DNA of 64,000 nt from an uncultured archaeon (GTDB lineage: Archaea > Asgardarchaeota > Hermodarchaeia > Hermodarchaeales > Hermodarchaeaceae): positions 27,227-91,226 of the forward strand of contig CAYFXC010000005.1 of NCBI GenBank assembly GCA_964347045.1, written 5' to 3'. A model generated the notes under the pieces. That model saw only the letters and a list, made by a program, of their open reading frames with translations, did no database searches and was not told the origin of the DNA. Shown here piece after piece: positions 1-59,404 of the stretch (positions within the stretch are counted from its first letter, which is position 1; the number at the start of each line of letters is the position of its first letter). Position numbers and translations under genes: made by a program.

Positions 1-854
1 ACAACTTGTGCAACCTTCCAGGCTGAGCTAAGGTGGGGCGCATTTGCATTGGGTCGTTGTGCCCAAGTAACTTTGAACTCCTGGTCGGACTGAATGTCCA
101 TCCAATTCCCAATAATCAGGGGAAGATGGCGGTTTGTTATGCCTAGCCATTCAATGGACCCAAACCATGTCGGGTCAACGGGAATCCATTGGTTTCGAAT
201 CCAGACTTCACTCCAACCATGTCGTTCCCACTTTTTACCCAATGAAGCAAAGCCTGAAATCAGCCGAGCAGGTATTTTCCGGGCACGACATAATGCCGCA
301 AACAACGCTGCGTACTCCGTACAGTCACCAACCCGCTTTTCTATCGCATAAGCTGCTCCTCGCTCATGACGTTGAGGTTCATAGCGGAGGATTTCTGTAA
401 CTGTTCGCATCGCTGCCTTAATGAACGGAACTATCTCTGCATGCTCTTTCGCAATATCACGGGCTAAATCCTTAATCAAGTGATGATGCGATTCGATGAA
501 GTTTTCGGGTTTTATATAGGATTGGAGCTGGCTAGGAATGGACTGATTTTGGACAAACGAGGCTGGTTGATATTGGATTGACCGATTCCGTACTAATGCA
601 GTATATCCGCAGGTGAAGGTTTCGTCTCCCGGTAATCTGTGACATGTAATATCCAACCATTGATTTCCAACTAAATCCGTGGCTTGCAGATCCATAGTTG
701 ATTGGGGATTGAGGTCAATTAGCTGTTGGTAAGGTGGAACGGGAGTAGGAACTGCAATGAAGATTCGAACATTTGTCAAAGGAGCCGTTGCTTTGTTGGT
801 AATTGTGGTTTGGTAGGTTACGCGATGTGTAAGAATCACTGAGCTCGAGGTCAT
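1..854 (-). CDS. Transglutaminase-like (Cys-His-Asp) domain protein, truncated by the window edge; absent from the ORF track
   Basis: Manual translation from ATG 854 gives MTSSSVILTHRVTYQ...GDCTEYAALFAALCRARKIPARLISG...ERHGWSEVWIRNQWIPVDPTW, open to base 1. The ATG overlaps the TGA of the upstream ORF (ATGA). Confidence 0.9.
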   Translation of the reverse strand, partial: MTSSSVILTHRVTYQTTITNKATAPLTNVRIFIAVPTPVPPYQQLIDLNPQSTMDLQATDLVGNQWLDITCHRLPGDETFTCGYTALVRNRSIQYQPASFVQNQSIPSQLQSYIKPENFIESHHHLIKDLARDIAKEHAEIVPFIKAAMRTVTEILRYEPQRHERGAAYAIEKRVGDCTEYAALFAALCRARKIPARLISGFASLGKKWERHGWSEVWIRNQWIPVDPTWFGSIEWLGITNRHLPLIIGNWMDIQSDQEFKVTWAQRPNANAPHLSSAWKVAQV

Positions 855-1237
855 TGTTTTTGCCCGTTATCCTTGTTTTGTACATCGTTATCGGCATTGG
901 CGTTCTCGAGAATAATGACTCTACCACCAGGTGATTGAGATGTGCTAGGTTGAACATCACCGAGGAGAATAACTCTAGAGGGTGCAGTGGAATCGGTTTC
1001 TTTCTGTTCGTTTCGTGGTCCAAGAAAACGAGTGAAGTGAGGCGGATGGGCTTTAACGCCCCGAACTATTGTCCCTGGGCAGATGCCCTGACCCGTTTCG
1101 AGAAATAGAGCACGGCAGGAAGTACAAATGTAGCTACCGCAGGTAGTACAAATCCACCATTGGCTACGTGCCCTTGGGAGTGGAACTTGTGAATCACAGG
1201 CCATACACTTGATATGCGAGGCCCCGTGGATGCTCAC
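851..1237 (-). CDS. RING-like Zn-finger protein (putative E3) with disordered C-terminal tail
   Basis: CxxC-x15-CxxC-x4-CxxC-x11-CP...H pattern (CMAC...WWICTTCGSYICTSC...GICPG...H); translationally coupled to both neighbours. Confidence 0.7.
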   Translation of the reverse strand: MSIHGASHIKCMACDSQVPLPRARSQWWICTTCGSYICTSCRALFLETGQGICPGTIVRGVKAHPPHFTRFLGPRNEQKETDSTAPSRVILLGDVQPSTSQSPGGRVIILENANADNDVQNKDNGQKQ

Positions 1238-1452
1238 TCCTCCTTTTCCTCCTGCTCAGAATGTTTTCGAATGCGGTGAACTGTAACAGAAAAATGAGGC
1301 GAGAAGTTTGGGGGGCGTTCTTCTATAAAAGGAATGTCTCGTTCACGTAAAATTACAATTCGGTTCTCTTTTGATGGATCTTTTAATTGAGGTTGAACGT
1401 CATTCTCTGATTCTTGAGGGGTTTCTTCCTTGTCTGGTGACTTCTCCGACAT
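1234..1452 (-). CDS. Small acidic/disordered protein with RIVIL motif
   Basis: 72-aa ORF inside the operon; GGAGAG-like SD; overlaps the next start. Confidence 0.65.
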   Translation of the reverse strand: MSEKSPDKEETPQESENDVQPQLKDPSKENRIVILRERDIPFIEERPPNFSPHFSVTVHRIRKHSEQEEKEE

Positions 1453-1466
1453 TGATTACTTCTCTC

Positions 1467-2216
1467 CTAGCCATCATCGGCTTCATCCAGAATTCGTCCA
1501 GTTGATTTTTTCTCTGGGTCATCCAGAATCCGAGGAGGTCTTCTATTTGGTTGTTCTTGAGATTGTTCCAGTGATAGAATTTGTACTCGTCCCTGTCTAG
1601 AAGATGCAGGTGAAGTGACTTGGTGTCGTACTTCCCAGAACCGATCTAGGGTTTCGACGATGTTATTTGTGTCTTGCTCATACCATGTCATAGCGGTGCT
1701 GTTTAGTCCATGGTCAGATTGAAACTGAGATGGTGGTTCTACTCGATCTGGTTTTAACAATACAAAGAAAGGCAAATCCTCTAAAATTCGGTCGAGTTCA
1801 CCTCGAACAGAATAACATGCATGACCTGTTCCACTGGTAGCGAGCCGGGGATGATATAGGGGGGTCTCTGCTGCGGGTCGGATAATGCCGATGTTCTGAG
1901 GATACTCTCGTGGTAAATCAAAGACGAATCGATGTTCATATCGAATGGCACCTTCATCAGTCAACGATTTTGGCTGGCGGACAAACCCAGGAAGATTGCG
2001 CATGGTAAATCGAATACGTTTGTAGGCTCCATCTTTGTATCGACCAATAATTTCAACAGTAAAATCGCGGTTACTCCACCTTGTGTTCTCACGTTGGGGC
2101 GGATCCGGGTACCATCCGCGTCTTCCGTACAGATTATTCATCGCGTCAAAAAATGTATGAATTTGAGTTTCAACTCGGGCATTGAAGAGCTCGGGTGAAA
2201 ACACAGGCCGCGTCAA
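1467..2216 (-). CDS. Ubiquitin-conjugating enzyme (UBC/E2)-fold protein
   Basis: FDLPREYP...TPLYHPRL...GHAC (Cys134) and GLNSTAMTWY follow the E2 pattern F-x-LP-xx-YP...T-xx-YHPN...G-x-IC...PLN-x-AA-xx-Y. Confidence 0.8.
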   Translation of the reverse strand: MTRPVFSPELFNARVETQIHTFFDAMNNLYGRRGWYPDPPQRENTRWSNRDFTVEIIGRYKDGAYKRIRFTMRNLPGFVRQPKSLTDEGAIRYEHRFVFDLPREYPQNIGIIRPAAETPLYHPRLATSGTGHACYSVRGELDRILEDLPFFVLLKPDRVEPPSQFQSDHGLNSTAMTWYEQDTNNIVETLDRFWEVRHQVTSPASSRQGRVQILSLEQSQEQPNRRPPRILDDPEKKSTGRILDEADDG

Positions 2217-2270
2217 AGTTCAATCCCTCATCTAAGATTCATTCTACTAAATAAGGCCGACTAGTTAACT

Positions 2271-2591
2271 TCACAAACCTACTTCCGGAACGACATCAAG
2301 AAGGAAGAACTCGTCATCCGAAATTTTAGGATCGAGCTCACCGAAAGTTGCACCGGGGCTAAGTCTTGTGGGTTCAGGGGCTTTTCGAATTAAGACAAAT
2401 TCCGCACGTTGGTCTCCGATTTTAGCTTTAGCCCACTCATCGATGCTTACGCCTTCATCACGCGCCTGGGTAACGAGGGTGCGGATAACTTCTTCCACTC
2501 GGGTTTCCTCATCAATGCCAATACGGAATTCTTTTTGGCGGGGCTCAACGTCGACTATGATTGAGCGCCAAAAACCTTCTTCACTACTCAT
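2271..2591 (-). CDS. Putative ubiquitin-like (beta-grasp) protein, C-terminus ...VVPEVG-L
   Basis: 106 aa; strand-strand-helix pattern (SIIVDVE/KEFRIGIDEETRVEEVIRTLV), TFGEL..ISDDEFFLLDV and penultimate Gly; first gene of an E2/RING operon; SD AGGTGA. Confidence 0.65.
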   Translation of the reverse strand: MSSEEGFWRSIIVDVEPRQKEFRIGIDEETRVEEVIRTLVTQARDEGVSIDEWAKAKIGDQRAEFVLIRKAPEPTRLSPGATFGELDPKISDDEFFLLDVVPEVGL

Positions 2592-2827
2592 GGTTATTCA
2601 CCTACAAGGTGAGGGTTATAGCATCCACTTTAACTTTACTCGATGGTTAGACATCTTCTTGTCCTTCTTTATTTATGAAAGAGAATAGGTCGGCTCAAAA
2701 TCATAAGTAAATGGCGCCCACTCCTCTGTTGGAGTGAAAGTTTAAGAGTCATAGACTAGTTTGACTTAGTGTACTTAGACAATCAAGTCATCTGCTCAGA
2801 ATAACCCGCGGGAGCTCATTCGATAAA
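2592..2827. promoter_or_regulatory. Divergent promoter region shared by the Ubl-E2 and SMC operons
   Basis: 236-bp gap between head-to-head starts; BRE/TATA-like GAAAGTTTAAGA on plus (~2736-2747) and AAAGTTAAAG on minus (~2628-2637); inverted repeat CACTCC-N6-GGAGTG at 2719-2736. Confidence 0.45.
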
Positions 2828-5722
2828 ATGACAACTAGGCATGAGACAACCCCTTTAACCCCACAGGTTGTGTTTCGTTCAATTCGTTTAGTGAACTTTG
2901 TCATTCATCGCGAAACCTCCATCCAGCTCGATAACTCGCCAATTGTACTCATAACAGGCTCGAATGGTAGCGGTAAAACCTTGATTCTTGATGCCCTTTT
3001 ATTGGCTATTGGAGTTGAATCCCGTCGGGCTCAACGCCAACGTAACTCTGCCTTCATTGGGCGTTTCGGTAAATATGCTGAGGTTGAGCTGGAACTCAAT
3101 AATTTCCAGCTCAATGGTCGACGAGTGCTACGCAGTCCTGATCCCGCTTTAAGCAAGCTCCTGGAAAGAGATATAGTATCAATTCGCCTGCGAATTCATG
3201 ATTCGAATCGAATTTCATATTGGTTGAATGGACACCGCTCAGTGAATGGTCATCAAATAGCACGGAAAGATATTCGAAGACTCTTCCAAGCTGCTGGTCT
3301 CTTTGGTGAATCCCCGCTAGCCGTAACGGAAGCAGAGACATTAGACCATTTTGCCTCTCAGTCCCCTCGACGGAAATTCGAGACATTGCTCAATGAAACT
3401 GGTTTACGGAATTGGATGGAAAAACTCGAAGAAGCCCGTTTGCTCGTACTCCAGGCTAAAGCAAATATCAAACCTCTTGAATACCGAATTCGTCACGAGG
3501 AACAACGGCTGCAAGTATTGAAAGCTGCTTATGAAGCGTATGAACAAAAACAGCAGCTCCAAAGACGACAAAAACAACTCGATATTGAAGCTGCTTGGGC
3601 TGAAGTTGTATATCGTGAAGAACTGGCAGCTCAGCTTCAATCACAAATTACAACATACAATAAACAGCTATCAGTTGAAAATAAGAAACTAGCATCGCTT
3701 GATCAACGTAAAGTTGAGTTAAAATCAAAGTTTGATTCGATTGAAGCAAAACGTGAGAAATTACTCACAACTATGAACTCTCTACGCGATCACCAAATGC
3801 AAACGCAAGGGCATCGACAAGGTTTAGAAAATGAACTCGAAGTCCTTACTGCTCGGAGTGAACGGTTTGCAAAAGATCACAAACCAAGCGAAGCAAACGT
3901 TGCAAATATTCAGAAAGAATTAGATTCCCTTGTGGCTAAACGGAATCAATTAGATGATCAGCTTACTCAAATTCGGCAAGACATTGCGTCAACAGAAGAA
4001 AGGATTTTCACGCAACCCCAGCGATATCCACAGTTTGAGGAAACCATTCTCCGCGCTTGTCAGCGTTATCGTTCCGAACTAGACAAATTAGCTCTATCGG
4101 ACTCAGTCATTGGACCACTTTTCACCCTTATCCGAATGAAACCCGAATATGTTCATCGCGAAACTGCAGTAAAGCTTGCTTTGGGTCGTTATGTTTATGC
4201 ATTTATCGCGTTAAATCGGGCTGTCTTTATTGAAGCAAAAAACCTCTATGATCGACTCTGGCCTCACGAAAAACCTGATTTAGTTGTTGCCCGTACTAAC
4301 CCAACTACTGCGATTACCAAAGAACGACCTCCCGTTTCATCACCGGTAATAGGCTGGGCTGCAGATCTCATTGAAGGTGATGTTTACGCTGTTAGCTTTC
4401 TTAGTCGTGTCGTGAATACAGCGATCGCTGAGGAGGGAGCCGATCCCAACACTGTGGTAGATGCCTCTCAACAGCTCAAAGGAAATATTATCACTAGTGA
4501 TGGCAACAGCCACTATCTCCGAATAGGAGCTTTTACTCGACCTCCTCGTCCGGTAACAGTAGGCTTTGATATTTCACTCGATGAGCTTGGATTAGCACAA
4601 GACACCAATGAATATCGTCGTATACTGCGAGAACTTCGAGAACAAGAAGCACAGCTTATGCGGGATCGAATGCGAATAAATTCTGAAATAAGTCAACTCC
4701 GATCCACACTTCAAGACTTACAGCAGGAGCGCACCCTCAAGCTTTCTCAGGAAGAAAGAAATAGTAGAGTCATTGATTCAGAACGCCGGATCAATGAGTT
4801 AAAACAACAAATACTGGAGCTTGATACTAGAAGCGACACTCTAAGCCAAGAATATCAAGATTGTAAATCGGATTTATTTCCGTTTAATTCACGCCAACAA
4901 AAAGTCACTGAGCAACTTCAAAATCTCGAATCTCAGCGGTTACGGCGTCAAGCAGAAATTGATCGTATATCCGCGGAAGTCAAACAACGAGAAGATGAAC
5001 ACCTTCATCTTATGAAACAAACCAAAGATTTTCAAAAAGCAGCAACCAAACTTGCAGATCGTCCTGATGTCGTTCGTGAGCCTGCTGCAATTCGTGATGA
5101 TCAAATACAGGTTCAAGCAATGATCGATACTATTACAGCAACTGCCAAGGATCATCAAGCCTTTGAAGAACAAGAAAAAGTTGTATCACAACTCCAAGAA
5201 TATATAAAACAACGTCAACTTCATCTTGAGAATCTTATGACCGACGTTGATCGACGACTCGTCGAATGGCGACGTCAACTCGAAGAGACTGTTGAAACTC
5301 TTAACCAACGAATGAATCAATTACTCAGCCACTTTCTCAAGCAAGTCAAACTTCTTATTCGGTATCCCGATGAACCCAGCCGAGCTGAGCTCCATCTTCA
5401 ACTTGCTATCAACCGTAAAGGGGATTGGAGAACCTATCAAGAAATGTCCGGTGGCGAACGGGTTCTGGCTACCCAAACCTTCATACTTGCCCTTCACACG
5501 TTAGCAAAAAGCCCACTCCATGTGATCGACGAATTTACCCAACGCCTTGATGAAGCGAGCCGCGCAGCGATTTTAAATGTCGTTCAAAGGGCCCTCGACC
5601 TGACCCAGCAAGAATCGCTAATACATCCCCAGTTTCTTTTAATGGCTCCATCAACGGTCGGGCTCCAAATACCCGAGACTATGAATCATGTAGTTCTGAT
5701 TAAAGGACAGGTGAAAAAATAG
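2828..5722 (+). CDS. Smc5/6-like SMC ATPase (coalescin/Smc5-6 clade)
   Basis: Walker A GSNGSGKT; long coiled coils; central hinge (VIGPLFTLIRM...ALGRYVYAFI); signature MSGGERVLATQTFILAL; Walker B SPLHVIDEF; QFLLMAP in place of the H-loop, as in Smc5/6 (QFxxxTP). Confidence 0.88.
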   Translation: MTTRHETTPLTPQVVFRSIRLVNFVIHRETSIQLDNSPIVLITGSNGSGKTLILDALLLAIGVESRRAQRQRNSAFIGRFGKYAEVELELNNFQLNGRRVLRSPDPALSKLLERDIVSIRLRIHDSNRISYWLNGHRSVNGHQIARKDIRRLFQAAGLFGESPLAVTEAETLDHFASQSPRRKFETLLNETGLRNWMEKLEEARLLVLQAKANIKPLEYRIRHEEQRLQVLKAAYEAYEQKQQLQRRQKQLDIEAAWAEVVYREELAAQLQSQITTYNKQLSVENKKLASLDQRKVELKSKFDSIEAKREKLLTTMNSLRDHQMQTQGHRQGLENELEVLTARSERFAKDHKPSEANVANIQKELDSLVAKRNQLDDQLTQIRQDIASTEERIFTQPQRYPQFEETILRACQRYRSELDKLALSDSVIGPLFTLIRMKPEYVHRETAVKLALGRYVYAFIALNRAVFIEAKNLYDRLWPHEKPDLVVARTNPTTAITKERPPVSSPVIGWAADLIEGDVYAVSFLSRVVNTAIAEEGADPNTVVDASQQLKGNIITSDGNSHYLRIGAFTRPPRPVTVGFDISLDELGLAQDTNEYRRILRELREQEAQLMRDRMRINSEISQLRSTLQDLQQERTLKLSQEERNSRVIDSERRINELKQQILELDTRSDTLSQEYQDCKSDLFPFNSRQQKVTEQLQNLESQRLRRQAEIDRISAEVKQREDEHLHLMKQTKDFQKAATKLADRPDVVREPAAIRDDQIQVQAMIDTITATAKDHQAFEEQEKVVSQLQEYIKQRQLHLENLMTDVDRRLVEWRRQLEETVETLNQRMNQLLSHFLKQVKLLIRYPDEPSRAELHLQLAINRKGDWRTYQEMSGGERVLATQTFILALHTLAKSPLHVIDEFTQRLDEASRAAILNVVQRALDLTQQESLIHPQFLLMAPSTVGLQIPETMNHVVLIKGQVKK

Positions 5723-6513
5723 TGATTGCTAATGATACATCAGCATTTCTTCGGGCTTTTCCCCGTCGTAAAGCTTGGTATGATAGTTTCCAAAATAACT
5801 ACAAACGAAACCGTCTAACACGTTTTGGTACAAAAAGTGTCATTATTACCCTTTGGAATCTGACTAAAAAATATGAAGTTGCACTCAAACATCATGATGT
5901 GGTTCCTGTTAAAGAAGCGGAATTAGACCGTGAGGAGGTCACTGATGCTTTTCGTGTTCTCGATACTCCCTGGGAACGCAATCTGGATGGGCGATTCTAC
6001 TACACCCTCGCCTCAATGCAACACCGCCGTGACGCTCAATTCGCTGCACCTGAAATTGCTCCCGAAGAATGGATTTCTCAATTCGCCAATGAGGTTAAAC
6101 GTCGAGCCACTCCTATACTCTTCTTAATTAATCAAGAGCGTACCATCCCTCCCTTTGATTTGCCTCCAGCTGATATGCCAATGGCAATGGATGTAGCACC
6201 ATCTCGAGATGATCAGCAGGCAATACGGAGACATCGAGTTCGCTTCGAAGAAATTTCAATTGCTAGGCTTGATGCTCGTCGAACTTCCATTCTGGAACGT
6301 CTAAGAGGAAAACGATACAGCTTCACAGCATTATCCAATCTTCTAACTAACTGGGAATTAGATTTGTTGAGCCAGATGATCCGTGATGATTTGCTTCCTG
6401 CTACATTCGAGAAAACCGCTATTGTCTTTCAGAAGCCATCGCAATCTCAAAAAGCTGGTATTAGATTTAGTGCTGTCGCCATTCCTGCAAAAAATCATGA
6501 GGAGATTCATTGA
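5722..6513 (+). CDS. Putative kleisin/Nse4-like subunit with C-terminal winged helix
   Basis: GTG overlaps the SMC stop; helical N-terminus, Pro/acidic linker and C-terminal WH-like segment (LLSQMIRDDLLPATFEKTAIVF); function inferred from context. Confidence 0.5.
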   Translation: MIANDTSAFLRAFPRRKAWYDSFQNNYKRNRLTRFGTKSVIITLWNLTKKYEVALKHHDVVPVKEAELDREEVTDAFRVLDTPWERNLDGRFYYTLASMQHRRDAQFAAPEIAPEEWISQFANEVKRRATPILFLINQERTIPPFDLPPADMPMAMDVAPSRDDQQAIRRHRVRFEEISIARLDARRTSILERLRGKRYSFTALSNLLTNWELDLLSQMIRDDLLPATFEKTAIVFQKPSQSQKAGIRFSAVAIPAKNHEEIH

Positions 6514-7160
6514 CAGTGACATCTGATCAAGCACCTCAAGACTCAATTTCACCTTCCTCTGAGGAAAACGAAGAAGAATTCGAGCAACATCATCTGTTAG
6601 GTCAACTCTTTGCTGCTCTCACTGCTCGATTTCGTAATGAGGATGGTCAATTGACCATCGGTGTCAAACGACAGGATTTGCTTCAAGCCCTTCATATTAA
6701 CAAAGCTGGATTAACTCGTCTACTCGATTTACTTCGCCAACAGATAACTCCGCTCGGATTGGAATTAGTTGAATATCGGTTAGGTCGAGATACACTCTAT
6801 TGTATCCGTACAATCTATGGAGTTCCTGGAGAACTCACAGATCCCGAATACGCAGTCCTTGGTGTCATAATTTCGACCATAGAACGGGCAAGCAAACATC
6901 GTCGTCCTCGCAGAGTTGCAACAAAAGACATCGAAACTATTCTCGTTGCTCGGGGACGCCTATCCCGCTACCAGCTAGATAAAATACTTCGACGTTTAAC
7001 TGAACTAGGTTACATCACACGAACAGCACGACGAATTGTATATGGTCCACGGCTGGAATTGGAATTTGATGCTGAACGTCGCGAAGCCATTTCTAACGCC
7101 GCTACTCTTTTTCTTGCGGGTGCAATTGCTGAATCGGAGGACATAAAGAATGAAACTTGA
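6510..7160 (+). CDS. KITE (tandem winged helix) protein, Nse1/Nse3(MAGE)-like
   Basis: LRQQITPLGLELV, YAVLGVIISTI and LDKILRRLTELGYI...YGPRLELEF recall Nse1/MAGE motifs (xGPRAxxE); lies in the SMC operon. Confidence 0.75.
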   Translation: MTVTSDQAPQDSISPSSEENEEEFEQHHLLGQLFAALTARFRNEDGQLTIGVKRQDLLQALHINKAGLTRLLDLLRQQITPLGLELVEYRLGRDTLYCIRTIYGVPGELTDPEYAVLGVIISTIERASKHRRPRRVATKDIETILVARGRLSRYQLDKILRRLTELGYITRTARRIVYGPRLELEFDAERREAISNAATLFLAGAIAESEDIKNET

Positions 7161-7611
7161 CCTTTCCACCGTTGGTATCAGCTGTGTTGCCTGTGGTACA
7201 CGAACAACACTCGAGCAGGCAATCCAAAATGACTGGCATCAGTGTCTCCGTTGCCAATTCTTTATTGATCCTCATTGCCTTGAAATTGTACAAAACACGA
7301 TGGGCGGAGTTTGCCCCTCTTTCAGTCAGGGAGTATCCCGGCATTCTCTACAACAAGCAGATATCCCCTCTGAACAAATCCTTATTTTCGTTAAAGATCA
7401 ATATCAGAAAGGTCGAATAGGGGTTCTCATCGACACACTCTTCTATACAAAACCATCTGCTCTTGAAAAACCTCAACATAAAAGTGAACTACAACCCCAT
7501 TTCGAAGAAGCCCTTACTCGCGAAGAAATCTGGCAACGATATGGTCTTGTATTAGTGCAACGATCCCATGGTAAATGGAAAACTTGGGAAAAAGTTGGTA
7601 GTACAGGATAA
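7150..7611 (+). CDS. RING-like Zn-finger protein (Nse1-RING-like), paralog of 851..1237
   Basis: CVAC...WHQCLRC..FIDPHC...GVCPS...H; aligns motif by motif with the 128-aa protein. Confidence 0.7.
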   Translation: MKLDLSTVGISCVACGTRTTLEQAIQNDWHQCLRCQFFIDPHCLEIVQNTMGGVCPSFSQGVSRHSLQQADIPSEQILIFVKDQYQKGRIGVLIDTLFYTKPSALEKPQHKSELQPHFEEALTREEIWQRYGLVLVQRSHGKWKTWEKVGSTG

Positions 7612-7651: not shown

Positions 7652-8026
7652 ATGGCATCTCAATCTGTATCCATAGCGATAGGCTCGGAGCTGATGGGTG
7701 TGGTTGATGAAAAATCTCCAATTTGGGTAAAGCATGCCATCCGGCGATGGAAACAGTTCTATCATGAAATCCAATATGCTGATGGGCAAATTGATATTTC
7801 GAACCCCTTGAGTACAATCTTTCGCAACGAATCTCAAATGGCAAAATTAGCTGTTGAAGGTAGCTCTGTATCAACTGAATCTATTCAGACAAAAAAAGAG
7901 GACTCAACAAAGTCTCAACCAGAGAAGATACCTTCTTCGAAACCTGAACAAAAACAGAGTAAGGGGCGGTTTCTCTTTAAAATAAAGGAACTCCAGTTCC
8001 TTTCTACTCCGCTCAGCTTTTTTTGA
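7652..8026 (+). CDS. Hypothetical protein, possibly last gene of the SMC operon
   Basis: 124-aa ORF 40 bp after the RING gene; low-complexity S/K/E linker. Confidence 0.55.
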   Translation: MASQSVSIAIGSELMGVVDEKSPIWVKHAIRRWKQFYHEIQYADGQIDISNPLSTIFRNESQMAKLAVEGSSVSTESIQTKKEDSTKSQPEKIPSSKPEQKQSKGRFLFKIKELQFLSTPLSFF

Positions 8027-9014
8027 TATGTTTTTGGGCATTTTCGTCTATTCCGAGTTCAGCCAGAATTTTATCAATAATATTGCTTGCCGCTCGCTTT
8101 GTCTCCTTTGATTCGGTTACCGCTTCATCTCTGATATCCTCAGGCAGTTGTGGTAATCCAGCAAGTTTTCTGATGATTCCCGAGATTGCATGTTTAGCAA
8201 CTGACTCCTCAGATCCTCCGGATAGCAATACCACCAACCGACCTGAACACATTTCATCCGCCGCCTGTAGTAGAATGCCTGTCATAGCTGGAAATGCTCG
8301 TAGTGATAGATTGAAGCCACCATAATCTAAGGCATGTGCATCATGTCCCATATTCCACAATATTATTTCAGGACGACAAAGCCGAGCCCAGGGAAGTACT
8401 AATCGGCGTACGGCTTCTACAAAGGACTCGTCACTGCTACTGCTGGGAAATGGAATGTCGACATGGTGCATACTAACTGTGTCTATGCTCTCCCGAAAAC
8501 TTGCCTCAAAGTTGAGGTGAAACACGCCTTCATCATGACCAAGTATATCACGTGTTCCATCACCAGGATGGGGGTCTGTATCAACAATGAGAAACCGCTT
8601 TACATCGTGGCCTTGCTGTAAATGACGTACAAGCAACGCTGTATTGTTATAGTAGCAAAATCCCCAGAACGAATCACGGCTAGCGTGATGACCCGCACAC
8701 CCCGTAAATGCAAAAGCGTTCGCTGCTTCACCGACCCAAACGGCCTCTCCCGCTCTAACAGCAGAGCCACCCGATACTAAGGAGGCTGGATCATATCCTG
8801 ACCCTTTCACTTGCTTAATATGGTCAGGCGTATGAACTTTCAACAGCAACCTCTCACTTACTTCTGGGGCTTCTTCAACTCTGACTTGGGCGGAATCGAA
8901 GGTGCCTGTTTCTTGCAAATAGTCAAATGCGGGCTGTACCCGACCGGCTAAAACAGGATATCCTTCGACAGCCATTAAAGGATGGTAAACAACAAGAGTT
9001 GGCTTCTTTTTCAT
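8013..9014 (-). CDS. Histone deacetylase family (Zn-dependent amidohydrolase)
   Basis: GHHA...GFCYYNN, IVDTDPHPGDGT and GHDAH..D motifs. Confidence 0.9.
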   Translation of the reverse strand: MKKKPTLVVYHPLMAVEGYPVLAGRVQPAFDYLQETGTFDSAQVRVEEAPEVSERLLLKVHTPDHIKQVKGSGYDPASLVSGGSAVRAGEAVWVGEAANAFAFTGCAGHHASRDSFWGFCYYNNTALLVRHLQQGHDVKRFLIVDTDPHPGDGTRDILGHDEGVFHLNFEASFRESIDTVSMHHVDIPFPSSSSDESFVEAVRRLVLPWARLCRPEIILWNMGHDAHALDYGGFNLSLRAFPAMTGILLQAADEMCSGRLVVLLSGGSEESVAKHAISGIIRKLAGLPQLPEDIRDEAVTESKETKRAASNIIDKILAELGIDENAQKHIKKS

Positions 9015-9087
9015 AATAATTCCAGCTTACTACATTTGAGCAAAAAAGGATATAACAGGATGTCTTATTCTACAGAACCACCCAAGG

Positions 9088-10296
9088 ATGAGATTTACAT
9101 TGGAAATTCGAAAAATTACAAACAAAGAACGCAGTACGCTCATGGATCTTTACCGGTATGCCTATACTGAATGGTCAGACCAACCAATCAAGAGCGAAGA
9201 GCTGGATGAAATTATTTCTGAAGAGACATTAGGCTTTTTCGAAAACGGGCGATTAATCTCATCACTTCGTGTACATGACTTTCAGCAATCCATCCGGGGA
9301 GTCCTCAAAGATTGTGGAGGCGTTGCAGGTGTAGCCACCTACCCTGAAGCCCGAACCAAAGGGTATGTTCGCCAGTTAATGCAAGCAAGCTTCAAACAAA
9401 TGCGAGAACAAGGGCAATCAGTAAGCATGCTTGATCCCTTCAAACAAAGTTTCTATGAGAAGTTTGGATTTGTCGCTGCAAACGCCGCCTATGTGGTTCA
9501 AGCTCCTATCAAGCAGCTTCAATATTGGAAAAAAGAAAATCAAAGCACTGATTGGACCTTTGAAAGGGTACGAGCTGTTGATGCGAAGGATATTCTGCTA
9601 AAATTTATCCGAGAAGTGGGACCAAAGCAGTATCATGGATATATCATTTTCAAATCTATTCCTGCCGGTATGTGGAAGCAACGAGTGAAAGACAGTATAG
9701 TTGTCTTTGTTCGGAATGAAGGAAAAATTCAGGCGGTCAGTCGGTATAGGATTAAAGGGGAACGGATTCAAGGAAGTTGGCAAAACAACCTTACCGTTAT
9801 CGATAGTCTCTGGCGAACACGTGAGGCTCGAGACCAACTTTTCAGCTTTTTTGCTAGACATCAAGACCAAATTCACAATATCATTATACATGCTCCTTTC
9901 GAAACCAAGGTAGATCACTGGTTTAAAGATGTTCGAATGAAAGTGGAACGAAAAACTACTTGGATGGTTCGATTAGTAGATGTCAAAAAAGCTATTGATA
10001 AGCTTCCTGGAGAAGGCGAGGATATCATCACGCTTGAACTTACCGATTCAGACTGTCCATGGAACAATGGCATATTCACCATTCAATCAGAAAAGGGTGT
10101 TTTGCGTATGACTAAAAGCTCGGGTAATCCAATCGTGAAAATCTCTATTGAAGCGCTTTCCTCTTTGGTTTATGGAACTCAACCTCTCGAAGAAATAGAA
10201 TTCCAAGAAAAAATTACAATTTCAGAAGATTGGGCAAGGCACACTTTGCAAAGGTGGTTCCCCCCCCTTCCTCTGTATAATGTCGTCTACTTCTAA
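9088..10296 (+). CDS. Eis-like GNAT acetyltransferase with C-terminal SCP2-like domain
   Basis: GVAGVATYPEARTKGY, FYEKFGF, RLVDV, DCPWNNG; 402 aa with terminal aromatic residue. Confidence 0.88.
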   Translation: MRFTLEIRKITNKERSTLMDLYRYAYTEWSDQPIKSEELDEIISEETLGFFENGRLISSLRVHDFQQSIRGVLKDCGGVAGVATYPEARTKGYVRQLMQASFKQMREQGQSVSMLDPFKQSFYEKFGFVAANAAYVVQAPIKQLQYWKKENQSTDWTFERVRAVDAKDILLKFIREVGPKQYHGYIIFKSIPAGMWKQRVKDSIVVFVRNEGKIQAVSRYRIKGERIQGSWQNNLTVIDSLWRTREARDQLFSFFARHQDQIHNIIIHAPFETKVDHWFKDVRMKVERKTTWMVRLVDVKKAIDKLPGEGEDIITLELTDSDCPWNNGIFTIQSEKGVLRMTKSSGNPIVKISIEALSSLVYGTQPLEEIEFQEKITISEDWARHTLQRWFPPLPLYNVVYF

Positions 10297-27041: not shown

Positions 27042-27563
27042 TTATCGGGCTTTTATTTTATTTTTAAGGAGTGGTATGGCTCCTCCTGCCTTAAGGTATT
27101 CAAGAAGAAAAGGAGGGATTTTTGCAAATTGATAGGTCCGTTTTGTTCGTTGGTTTGTCAGGGTGCCGCTTGAGAGCATAATTTCGATAATGTCGCCCTC
27201 ACGGATTATTTCTGGGTTCTTTGCGAGGTCAGGAAATTCAATTGCAGGAATGCCTAAGTTGAACGCGTTCCGATAAAAAATCCTAGCAAAGGAAGTAGCC
27301 ACAATTGCACCTAGACCGAGTTGACGTAGGATGGCTGGAGCTGATTCACGGCTCGAACCAATTCCAAAATGGTCATCAGCGACGATGATATCGCCAGATT
27401 TGACATTCTTAGCAAAATCGGGACGAAGATGCTCAAAAACGTAGGGCGTGATCTGGGCAATGGAGATTTTGGTCAGATGGGTGCCGGAAATAATATCATC
27501 TGTACTGATGTTGCTAGCAAACCGCCACACTTTGCCGACAATTGGTGTTTCCGACATAAGCAT
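27042..27563 (-). CDS. leuD: 3-isopropylmalate/homoaconitate dehydratase small subunit
   Basis: NISTDDII, FGIGSSRESA, SFARIFYRNAFNLG; substrate (Leu vs Lys pathway) not resolvable by eye. Confidence 0.85.
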   Translation of the reverse strand: MLMSETPIVGKVWRFASNISTDDIISGTHLTKISIAQITPYVFEHLRPDFAKNVKSGDIIVADDHFGIGSSRESAPAILRQLGLGAIVATSFARIFYRNAFNLGIPAIEFPDLAKNPEIIREGDIIEIMLSSGTLTNQRTKRTYQFAKIPPFLLEYLKAGGAIPLLKNKIKAR

Positions 27564-59259: not shown

Positions 59260-59404
59260 GGGGTCATGGCCTAACCAGGTATGGCAACGGGCTCCAGAAG
59301 AAGCCACCAGAAATACAAACTGACCGGATGCTCGGGATGACGATGTTCTGGAGCGACCTGGTGAAACCCGTAGATTCTGGGTTCAAATCCCAGTGACCCC
59401 ACCA
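59260..59404 (+). tRNA. trnW: tRNA-Trp(CCA) with ~68-nt intron at 37/38 (about 59298-59365) and encoded CCA
   Basis: Acceptor GGGGTCA/TGACCCC-A-CCA; anticodon stem ACGGG/CCCGT; anticodon CCA 59294-59296; T-loop GGTTCAAATCC. Confidence 0.93.

Follow-up and report, generated by a model that had tools for sequence, protein, structure and literature searches.

The 64,000-nucleotide stretch analysed here, referred to as the window, comes from an uncultured Hermodarchaeaceae archaeon and covers positions 27,227 to 91,226 of contig CAYFXC010000005.1 (C5:27227-91226 in our numbering) of a 2.58-Mb genome assembly that is 89% complete. Two divergent operons lie at its start, each with a gene for a small finger protein. 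The minus-strand operon carries a candidate ubiquitin-like modifier (Ubl), an E2-like protein and the finger protein ZnF1, and the plus-strand operon carries a structural maintenance of chromosomes (SMC) ATPase, a kleisin-sized protein, a KITE (tandem winged-helix) subunit and the finger protein ZnF2. Put at its safest, our reading of the sequences is that these fingers belong to a small, Asgard-specific family of putative two-zinc, RING-C2-like modules, one member of which is encoded, as a fixed fourth gene, in an SMC operon that includes a kite, with a paralogue in the Ubl operon. The features of the locus are as follows.

3..854, minus strand: transglutaminase-like protein (Pfam Transglut_core, E 8e-21), extending past the window start and overlapping the ZnF1 gene by 4 nt
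851..1237, minus strand: ZnF1, a 128-aa finger protein with a disordered tail (finger at residues 11-64, about 1046-1207)
1234..1452, minus strand: small acidic/basic protein of 72 aa, following the E2-like gene, no Pfam match
1467..2216, minus strand: E2-like (UBC-like) protein with an HPR...C motif (sub-threshold UBC matches; UQ_con match of the orthologue in family f12)
2271..2591, minus strand: candidate Ubl ending in Val-Gly plus one residue (C-terminus; weak YukD match)
2592..2827, no strand: divergent intergenic spacer of 236 bp between the Ubl and SMC operons (open reading frame map)
2828..5722, plus strand: second, non-canonical SMC-family ATPase of 964 aa (Pfam SMC_N, E 1.5e-21; head matches in the PDB)
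5722..6513, plus strand: kleisin-sized protein, assigned by position only
6510..7160, plus strand: KITE subunit (predicted fold, Foldseek)
7150..7611, plus strand: ZnF2, 153 aa (finger at residues 12-65, 7183-7344; conserved C-terminal domain, 7345-7608)

The Ubl operon is transcribed in the order Ubl, E2-like protein, 72-aa protein, ZnF1 and transglutaminase-like protein. Successive genes of the SMC operon overlap by 1, 4 and 11 nt, the last overlap being that of the KITE stop with the ZnF2 start. The divergent layout of the two operons recurred in locus L040, and the place of the 72-aa protein after the E2-like gene was kept in loci L040, L048 and L049. Additionally, genes for a JAB peptidase and a ThiF-type E1 were found just outside the window start, convergent with the transglutaminase-like gene.

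Two paralogous fingers and their ligands

The original prediction had described ZnF1 and ZnF2 as paralogous stand-alone fingers, one per operon. In a BLASTP comparison, the two shared 18 of 57 residues (32%, E 1e-6), and each was the sole further match of the other in the genome, which holds only these two copies. Moreover, a hidden Markov model (HMM) built from ZnF1 relatives alone recovered ZnF2 orthologues in nine other genomes (E 3e-15 to 4e-5). Therefore, ZnF1 and ZnF2 are homologous rather than chance cysteine-rich look-alikes, as had been proposed. The arrangement of one finger per operon was seen in the window's family but not in family f12, where about 9 kb with housekeeping genes separate ZnF1, together with a transglutaminase-like gene, from the Ubl genes. 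The two fingers of the window were not sisters in a 62-column tree, indicating an old rather than a recent duplication; this alignment is too short to resolve more.

Among 1.84 billion representative proteins clustered at 50% identity, a profile of both finger families matched only 41 at E<=1e-3. The close homologues came from metagenome-assembled genomes (MAGs) labelled Promethearchaeota or Thor-, Hod- or Hermodarchaeia. In longer proteins the finger was fused to a Ras-like GTPase (P0113), to a region judged by eye to be SWIM-like (P0106) or to coiled coils (P0101 and P0114), indicating a mobile module that extends beyond the SMC and Ubl contexts. None of the 41 representatives fused the finger to a KITE; P0114 was considered as such a fusion and rejected (hhalign of the KITE profile, probability 0.3%). 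ZnF2 carries a conserved C-terminal domain of 85 aa (conserved residues E126, W128, V134, R138, G141 and W146), which ZnF1 lacks.

The ligand positions are C12, C15, C32, C35, D40, C43, C55 and H65 in ZnF2 and C11, C14, C30, C33, C38, C41, C53 and H64 in ZnF1, where H67 is invariant too. In a joint alignment of 28 sequences, the invariant columns were, in ZnF2 numbering, C12, C15, A24, W29, C32, C35, C43, C55, P56, G61 and H65. ZnF2 follows the spacing C-x2-C-x16-C-x2-C-x4-[C/D]-x2-C-x11-C-x9-H, and ZnF1 has x15 at the second gap and x10 at the last; the pattern across the family is C-x2-[C/H/D]-x15-16-C-x2-C-x4-[C/D]-x2-C-x11-C-P-x8-9-H. The eight conserved positions, with RING-type spacing from ligand 1 to ligand 7, lie inside the RING-C2 consensus, which is listed together with the Asp substitution of RING-D at ligand 5 in Table 1 of PMC5240574. 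From the alignments, the ancestral fingers had a C4-C3-H ligand set, spaced as in RING-C2.

Two oddities of the ligand set, a distal His in place of CPxC and an Asp at ligand 5, had been pointed out before, and both were seen again by conservation. The Asp was confined to ZnF2 of the window's family, with Cys at this position in ZnF1, in the relative P0024 and in ZnF2 of all other families, so that, judged from the alignments, the Asp has replaced Cys in this lineage at a true ligand position. The Cys pair that forms ligands 7 and 8 of RING fingers (two residues apart) is absent from ZnF1 and ZnF2. The only conserved candidate for ligand 8 was a His located 9-10 residues past ligand 7 in the window's fingers and 6-10 residues past it across the family, which suggests that this His takes the place of ligand 8. 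His30 and His42 were rejected as ligands because their positions are not conserved. Ligand 2 was variable (C, H or D, seldom another residue). Among 130 distinct fingers, the residues at ligands 2 and 5 were C/C in 65, C/D in 32, H/C in 15 and D/C in 9, and 9 had a non-ligand residue at ligand 2; both positions were non-Cys in none of the 130. This pattern fits a cross-brace scheme in which ligands 2 and 5 would share one zinc site and the other site would be invariant; it agrees with a cross-brace without proving it.

The SMC operon and its ubiquitin-like neighbours

The SMC protein of the window matched the heads of Smc, Smc3, Smc4 and Smc6 in the PDB and gave no Pfam hinge match. Because a canonical SMC with a hinge, adjoined by ScpB, is encoded on contig C1, the window encodes a second SMC complex. 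The product of 6510-7160 was confirmed as a KITE by its predicted fold: the AlphaFold2 model (predicted local distance difference test, pLDDT, 84) has two winged helices, and its Foldseek matches were led by KITE proteins, namely ScpB (5e-6), Nse1 (1.3e-4, TM 0.47), MAGE-G1/Nse3 (1.4e-4), JetB and MukE, a result that assigns the protein to the class but not to Nse1 over Nse3 or ScpB. A kleisin-sized gene sat between SMC and KITE in every examined locus that reached upstream of KITE.

ZnF2 was present in 63 of 400 genomes of the phylum, distributed by family as f1 18/18, f2 1/1, f6 1/1, f7 28/31, f8 1/3, f11 2/2, f12 10/12 and f29 1/1; the two remaining f8 genomes showed ZnF2 by HMM. The carriers include Ca. 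Heimdallarchaeum endolithica (f7, complete genome), other Heimdallarchaeota MAGs (f6 and f12), Ca. Sifarchaeum subterraneum (f29) and Ca. Asgardarchaeum abyssi (f2). Strong KITE-profile matches (E<=4e-24) fell in the ZnF2 families. The succession of KITE and an overlapping finger gene, as first noticed in the window, proved invariant: in all 29 loci that included upstream sequence, ZnF2 came immediately after KITE, across eight Asgard families of the Heimdall, Hermod, Sif and Asgardarchaeum groups. The search for genomes with fused KITE and RING genes was negative in these 29 testable loci as well, all of which had separate genes. In another Asgard family, a complete genome contained a three-gene operon (L056:6570-10201) for an 835-aa SMC, a 218-aa protein and a 172-aa KITE-like protein; no finger gene followed the KITE in this more distant SMC-kleisin-KITE operon.

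JAB and E1 genes directly followed ZnF2 on the same strand in the f2, f12 and f29 loci, and in f11 JAB followed ZnF2 at the contig end; in f12 the same-strand run continued with Ubl, E2 and the small protein. The E2-like family occurred in 32 of the 400 genomes and only in f1, f2, f11 and f12, a strict subset of the families with the ZnF2 operon, a nesting that rests on four or five independent lineages, since related genomes are not independent. The E2-like core reads LPREYP...HPR...GxAC. The sub-threshold PDB matches of the family profile (E 0.07) were nearly all UBC enzymes and fell on their HPN-Cys region, and the f12 orthologue matched UQ_con (E 5.9e-4). The Ubl candidate ends in VG-L in the window, in VG-D in a sister genus and exactly in VG in f12, indicating that the one-residue cap is lineage-specific; it is presumably trimmed by the JAB peptidase or by the transglutaminase-like protein. 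The ZnF1 and transglutaminase-like genes were adjacent in L040, L048 and L049, and ZnF1 was directly upstream in the examined f1 and f12 loci.

In the disordered tails encoded within window positions 851-2216 (minus strand), R-[VI]-x-I-[LI] motifs recurred, often followed by acidic residues: RVQIL, PRILD and GRILD in the E2-like protein, RIVIL in the 72-aa protein, and RVILL and RVIIL in ZnF1. The motifs were conserved in relatives and may be strand-addition motifs for the Ubl, resembling SUMO-interacting motifs.

Among the neighbouring genes, a ResIII/Helicase_C helicase with a weak XPB match (ERCC3/RAD25 C-terminal) lies directly upstream of JAB-E1 on the same strand (L003:6849-8324, plus strand). 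A gene of the histone-deacetylase family (Hist_deacetyl, E 2.7e-44; window region 8013-10296) converges on ZnF2 and was kept in 16 of 16 loci of the window's family; in the window it is followed by a GNAT acetyltransferase gene. Farther along, a tRNA at 59260-59401 (plus strand), missed by ARAGORN, gave an Rfam match spanning 142 nt and is probably an intron-containing archaeal tRNA.

Fold class and proposed role of the finger

The AlphaFold2 model of ZnF2, based on a 37-sequence alignment, had a mean pLDDT of 81, with values of 85-96 over residues 1-80 and about 95 in the finger. A helix begins at ligand 6 in this model, and the central helix of RING domains starts at the same ligand. In a separate structural search (VIA), which compared the finger model with 48,161 chains and was run twice, RING, U-box or SP-RING E3 domains accounted for at least 40 of the 50 chains ranked highest, with Z values up to 5.3, a range that the tool rates as unspecific. 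The matches included the U-box 3lrq (Z 5.2, root-mean-square deviation (rmsd) 6.1 Å, 74 aligned residues), RNF4 (Z 4.9, 3.3 Å, 62 residues), TRAF6 (Z 4.9, 4.4 Å, 61 residues), APC11 (Z 4.8, 3.0 Å, 63 residues) and the Nse2 SP-RING (Z 4.7, 8.5 Å, 82 residues). The structure prediction thus favours the RING assignment made at the outset, its best matches being RING/U-box-class domains at weak Z; because of the tool's warning, the fold is read as likely, rather than proven, to be of the RING class.

Other finger classes were also considered. The C4HC3 set of PHD fingers did not occur in the finger alignments, nor did the basic R(R/K)HHCR patch that is the hallmark of FYVE fingers, and the Pfam FYVE matches (0.0027-0.007) were below the cut-off. 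The single zinc site of an SP-RING does not agree with the eight conserved ligand positions. The sub-threshold Pfam matches of the fingers were scattered over RING, IBR, FYVE, C1 and B-box models, and the ESM Atlas look-alikes, all scoring below 0.9, were uninformative.

We propose that the finger links the Ubl cascade to the SMC complex as an E3-like adaptor, which we consider its most likely function, giving the idea about even credence. ZnF2 is the fourth, translationally coupled product of the second SMC/kleisin-sized/KITE operon. It would bind the SMC complex, most likely via its extra C-terminal domain, and its finger would bring the Ubl-charged E2 of the JAB-E1-Ubl-E2 cassette to the complex or to its DNA-bound substrates, a role functionally analogous to those of Nse1 (RING) and Nse2 (SP-RING) in eukaryotic Smc5/6. 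ZnF1 is an old paralogue without the C-terminal domain that pairs with the transglutaminase-like protein, and it would serve the same Ubl system away from the SMC complex.

Several results weigh against this proposal and the fold reading behind it. No Pfam RING model was above threshold in either finger or in 37 family members, the best matches being zf-RING_UBOX (1.9e-4) and zf-C3HC4 (1e-3), below the cut-off and in 3 of the 37. Likewise, the RING matches of the finger profile among PDB sequences (NOT4, cellulose synthase, TRIM21 and RAD18 among them) were sub-significant, and Foldseek found no match of the finger model in the PDB at E<=0.001, those returned having E values of 0.8 or more. 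The cross-brace is putative, and the hydrophobic E2-contact position in loop 1 varied across the alignment. The kleisin-sized protein had no kleisin match in Pfam or in the PDB profile search. Finally, 28 of the 31 Heimdallarchaeaceae genomes, including two complete ones, have kept SMC, kleisin, KITE and ZnF2, with no Ubl or E2 of the window's type detected, indicating that ZnF2 has a role that does not need the cascade.

This last result agrees with the view that ZnF2 is a structural or regulatory SMC subunit, binding protein, DNA or Ubl without E3 activity, and that the Ubl cascade is merely co-regulated with the complex or modifies it unaided by the finger. The conserved C-terminal domain likewise points to binding, no RING HMM was significant on the fingers, and in the Nse1/3/4 trimer the variant RING (vRING) of Nse1 itself plays a structural part (PMC8750328). 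However, the E2-like family occurred only where the finger operon does, often contiguous with it, a paralogous finger sits within the Ubl operon itself, and the best fold matches were E3 domains; we regard a purely structural role as a serious but minority possibility. A further alternative, an anti-mobile-element system in which a Wadjet-, Lamassu- or Smc5/6-like SMC sensor is combined with a Bil-like Ubl module and the fingers are effectors or adaptors, seems improbable to us. The patchy presence in the phylum would suit it, PMC10586767 describes SMC-based and Ubl-based defence systems, and PADLOC gave E1-E2 and BilD-type matches for the E1 and JAB matches for the JAB. However, the SMC matched JetC, LmuB and other PADLOC ABC-ATPase models via its generic ATPase head only, the kleisin-sized protein, KITE, both fingers, E2 and Ubl had no PADLOC match, and none of the operon genes was recognised as encoding a nuclease. 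In addition, the operon is a single locus per genome with stable synteny, including the constant histone-deacetylase neighbour in the window's family, and hardly any genome lacks it in the families that carry it.

The original prediction had called the fingers Nse1-type and had suggested that KITE and ZnF2 may represent a precursor of eukaryotic Nse1 from before gene fusion, in which case the Nse1 RING would descend from the finger. The order of two winged helices and then a finger, with overlapping stop and start, mirrors the domain order of Nse1, and the operon is present in Heimdallarchaeia; moreover, according to bioRxiv 10.1101/2024.01.07.573240, if its table columns are read correctly, a Hermodarchaeum and Sifarchaeotum each have one Nse1,3-related kite. 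However, the Nse1-type label could not be upheld, and we judge the precursor idea improbable. A genome-wide search with PF08746 at E<=10 found neither finger, the model was also absent from the per-protein Pfam matches at E<=1, and PF07574 (SMC_Nse1) had no match in the whole genome. The C4HC3 set of the vRING is not found in the fingers, whose set is C4-C3-H with RING-C2 spacing, Cys or Asp at ligand 5 and a distal His at ligand 8. No fusion occurred among the 41 matches, ZnF2 has an extra C-terminal domain of a kind that is no part of the Nse1 architecture in PMC8750328, and the KITE fold matched ScpB and Nse3 as well as Nse1. The Nse1 RING was absent among the 50 chains listed in the structural search, which alone is not decisive, and the bioRxiv paper describes archaeal kites without RING and the Nse1 RING as a eukaryotic innovation.

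The best PF08746 match of the genome (E 8.8e-5, 23 bits, below the cut-off) was a stand-alone open reading frame of 55 aa (L004:1462-1629, minus strand; G000:C10:9710-9820) with a textbook C4HC3 finger, C-x2-C-x9-C-x2-C-x4-H-x2-C-x8-C-x2-C, and no KITE or SMC gene nearby. It is unrelated to the two fingers.

To our knowledge, Smc5/6 is the sole eukaryotic SMC complex with built-in E3 ligases. From this locus, a link between SMC, RING and ubiquitin-like proteins resembling that of Smc5/6 may predate eukaryotes. A stronger version, which strikes us as rather doubtful, is that in pre-eukaryotic Asgard archaea an SMC complex containing an Nse1/3-like kite was already equipped with a RING-class E3 subunit and served by an E1-E2-Ubl-JAB cascade of its own, and that the Nse1 RING or the E3 functions of Nse1 and Nse2 are the legacy of this machinery. 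If true, ubiquitin-type modification by an SMC5/6-like machine would be an archaeal invention. The current account treats the Nse1 RING as a eukaryotic innovation. In Asgard archaea of the Heimdall, Hermod and Sif groups, a likely RING-class finger gene is fixed beside the kite, and the Ubl/E2 cassette is restricted to carriers of that operon. The locus offers a small, fully prokaryotic system for an in vitro test of SMC-E3 function (nine proteins, or eleven with the 72-aa and transglutaminase-like proteins, each from a known gene) and would add an unusual RING variant, with a distal His as ligand 8 and Asp or His tolerated in one zinc site.

Comparison with known systems

A close parallel in layout is Nse1 of the Nse1-Nse3-Nse4 module of Smc5/6, with which the window shares a tandem winged-helix KITE followed by a probable RING-class two-zinc finger in the same order, and a tie to both an SMC-kleisin complex and ubiquitin-type conjugation. 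In Nse1, the C4HC3 vRING stands beside WHB, works with Ubc13/Mms2 and modifies Nse4 and Nse3 (PMC8750328). The finger of the window has ligands 3-6 spaced as C-x2-C-x4-X-x2-C and differs from Nse1 in having Cys or Asp instead of His at ligand 5 and a His at x9-10 instead of the final C-x2-C at ligand 8. Two genes replace the single chain of Nse1, with a second, free paralogue in the window, and the absence of a PF08746 match and the extra C-terminal domain of ZnF2 set the fingers further apart.

In ligand spacing, the fingers resemble RING-C2 domains of the CNOT4-like type (x2, x15-16, x2, x4, x2 and x11 from ligand 1 to ligand 7), with weak NOT4 and cellulose-synthase RING matches, and they share Asp at ligand 5 with RING-D (PMC5240574). 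Unlike these, they have a distal His instead of a Cys at x2 as ligand 8 and often His or Asp as ligand 2, and the family is archaeal, comprises the 41 representatives and has no significant sequence match.

Operons related to SMC5/6, encoding an SMC, an Nse4-related kleisin and an Nse1/3-related kite, have been described in archaea (PMC8665677; bioRxiv 10.1101/2024.01.07.573240), and the window resembles them in encoding, in an Asgard archaeon, a second SMC complex with a non-ScpB kite beside canonical SMC and ScpB. This likeness is one of operon make-up: those operons have three genes, whereas the window adds a fourth, finger gene and a Ubl cascade, and in the literature searched we found no mention of a finger gene or Ubl cascade attached to such operons. 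The operon could not be linked to the Heimdall LC_3 operon MDVS01000027.1_69-67 named in the bioRxiv paper.

Nse2/Mms21, the SP-RING SUMO ligase, offers another example of an E3-type finger subunit of an SMC complex, and it was among the structural matches (Z 4.1-4.7), at high alignment rmsd (6.6-8.5 Å). SP-RING domains bind one zinc, in contrast to the eight conserved ligand positions of the window's finger. The ubiquitin operon of Caldiarchaeum subterraneum reportedly encodes Ubl, E1, E2, a JAB peptidase and a small RING-type zinc-finger protein together, much as these components are grouped here. The cascade of the window differs from it in being tied to an SMC operon, in its transglutaminase-like partner, and in an E2 and a Ubl that are too divergent for Pfam.

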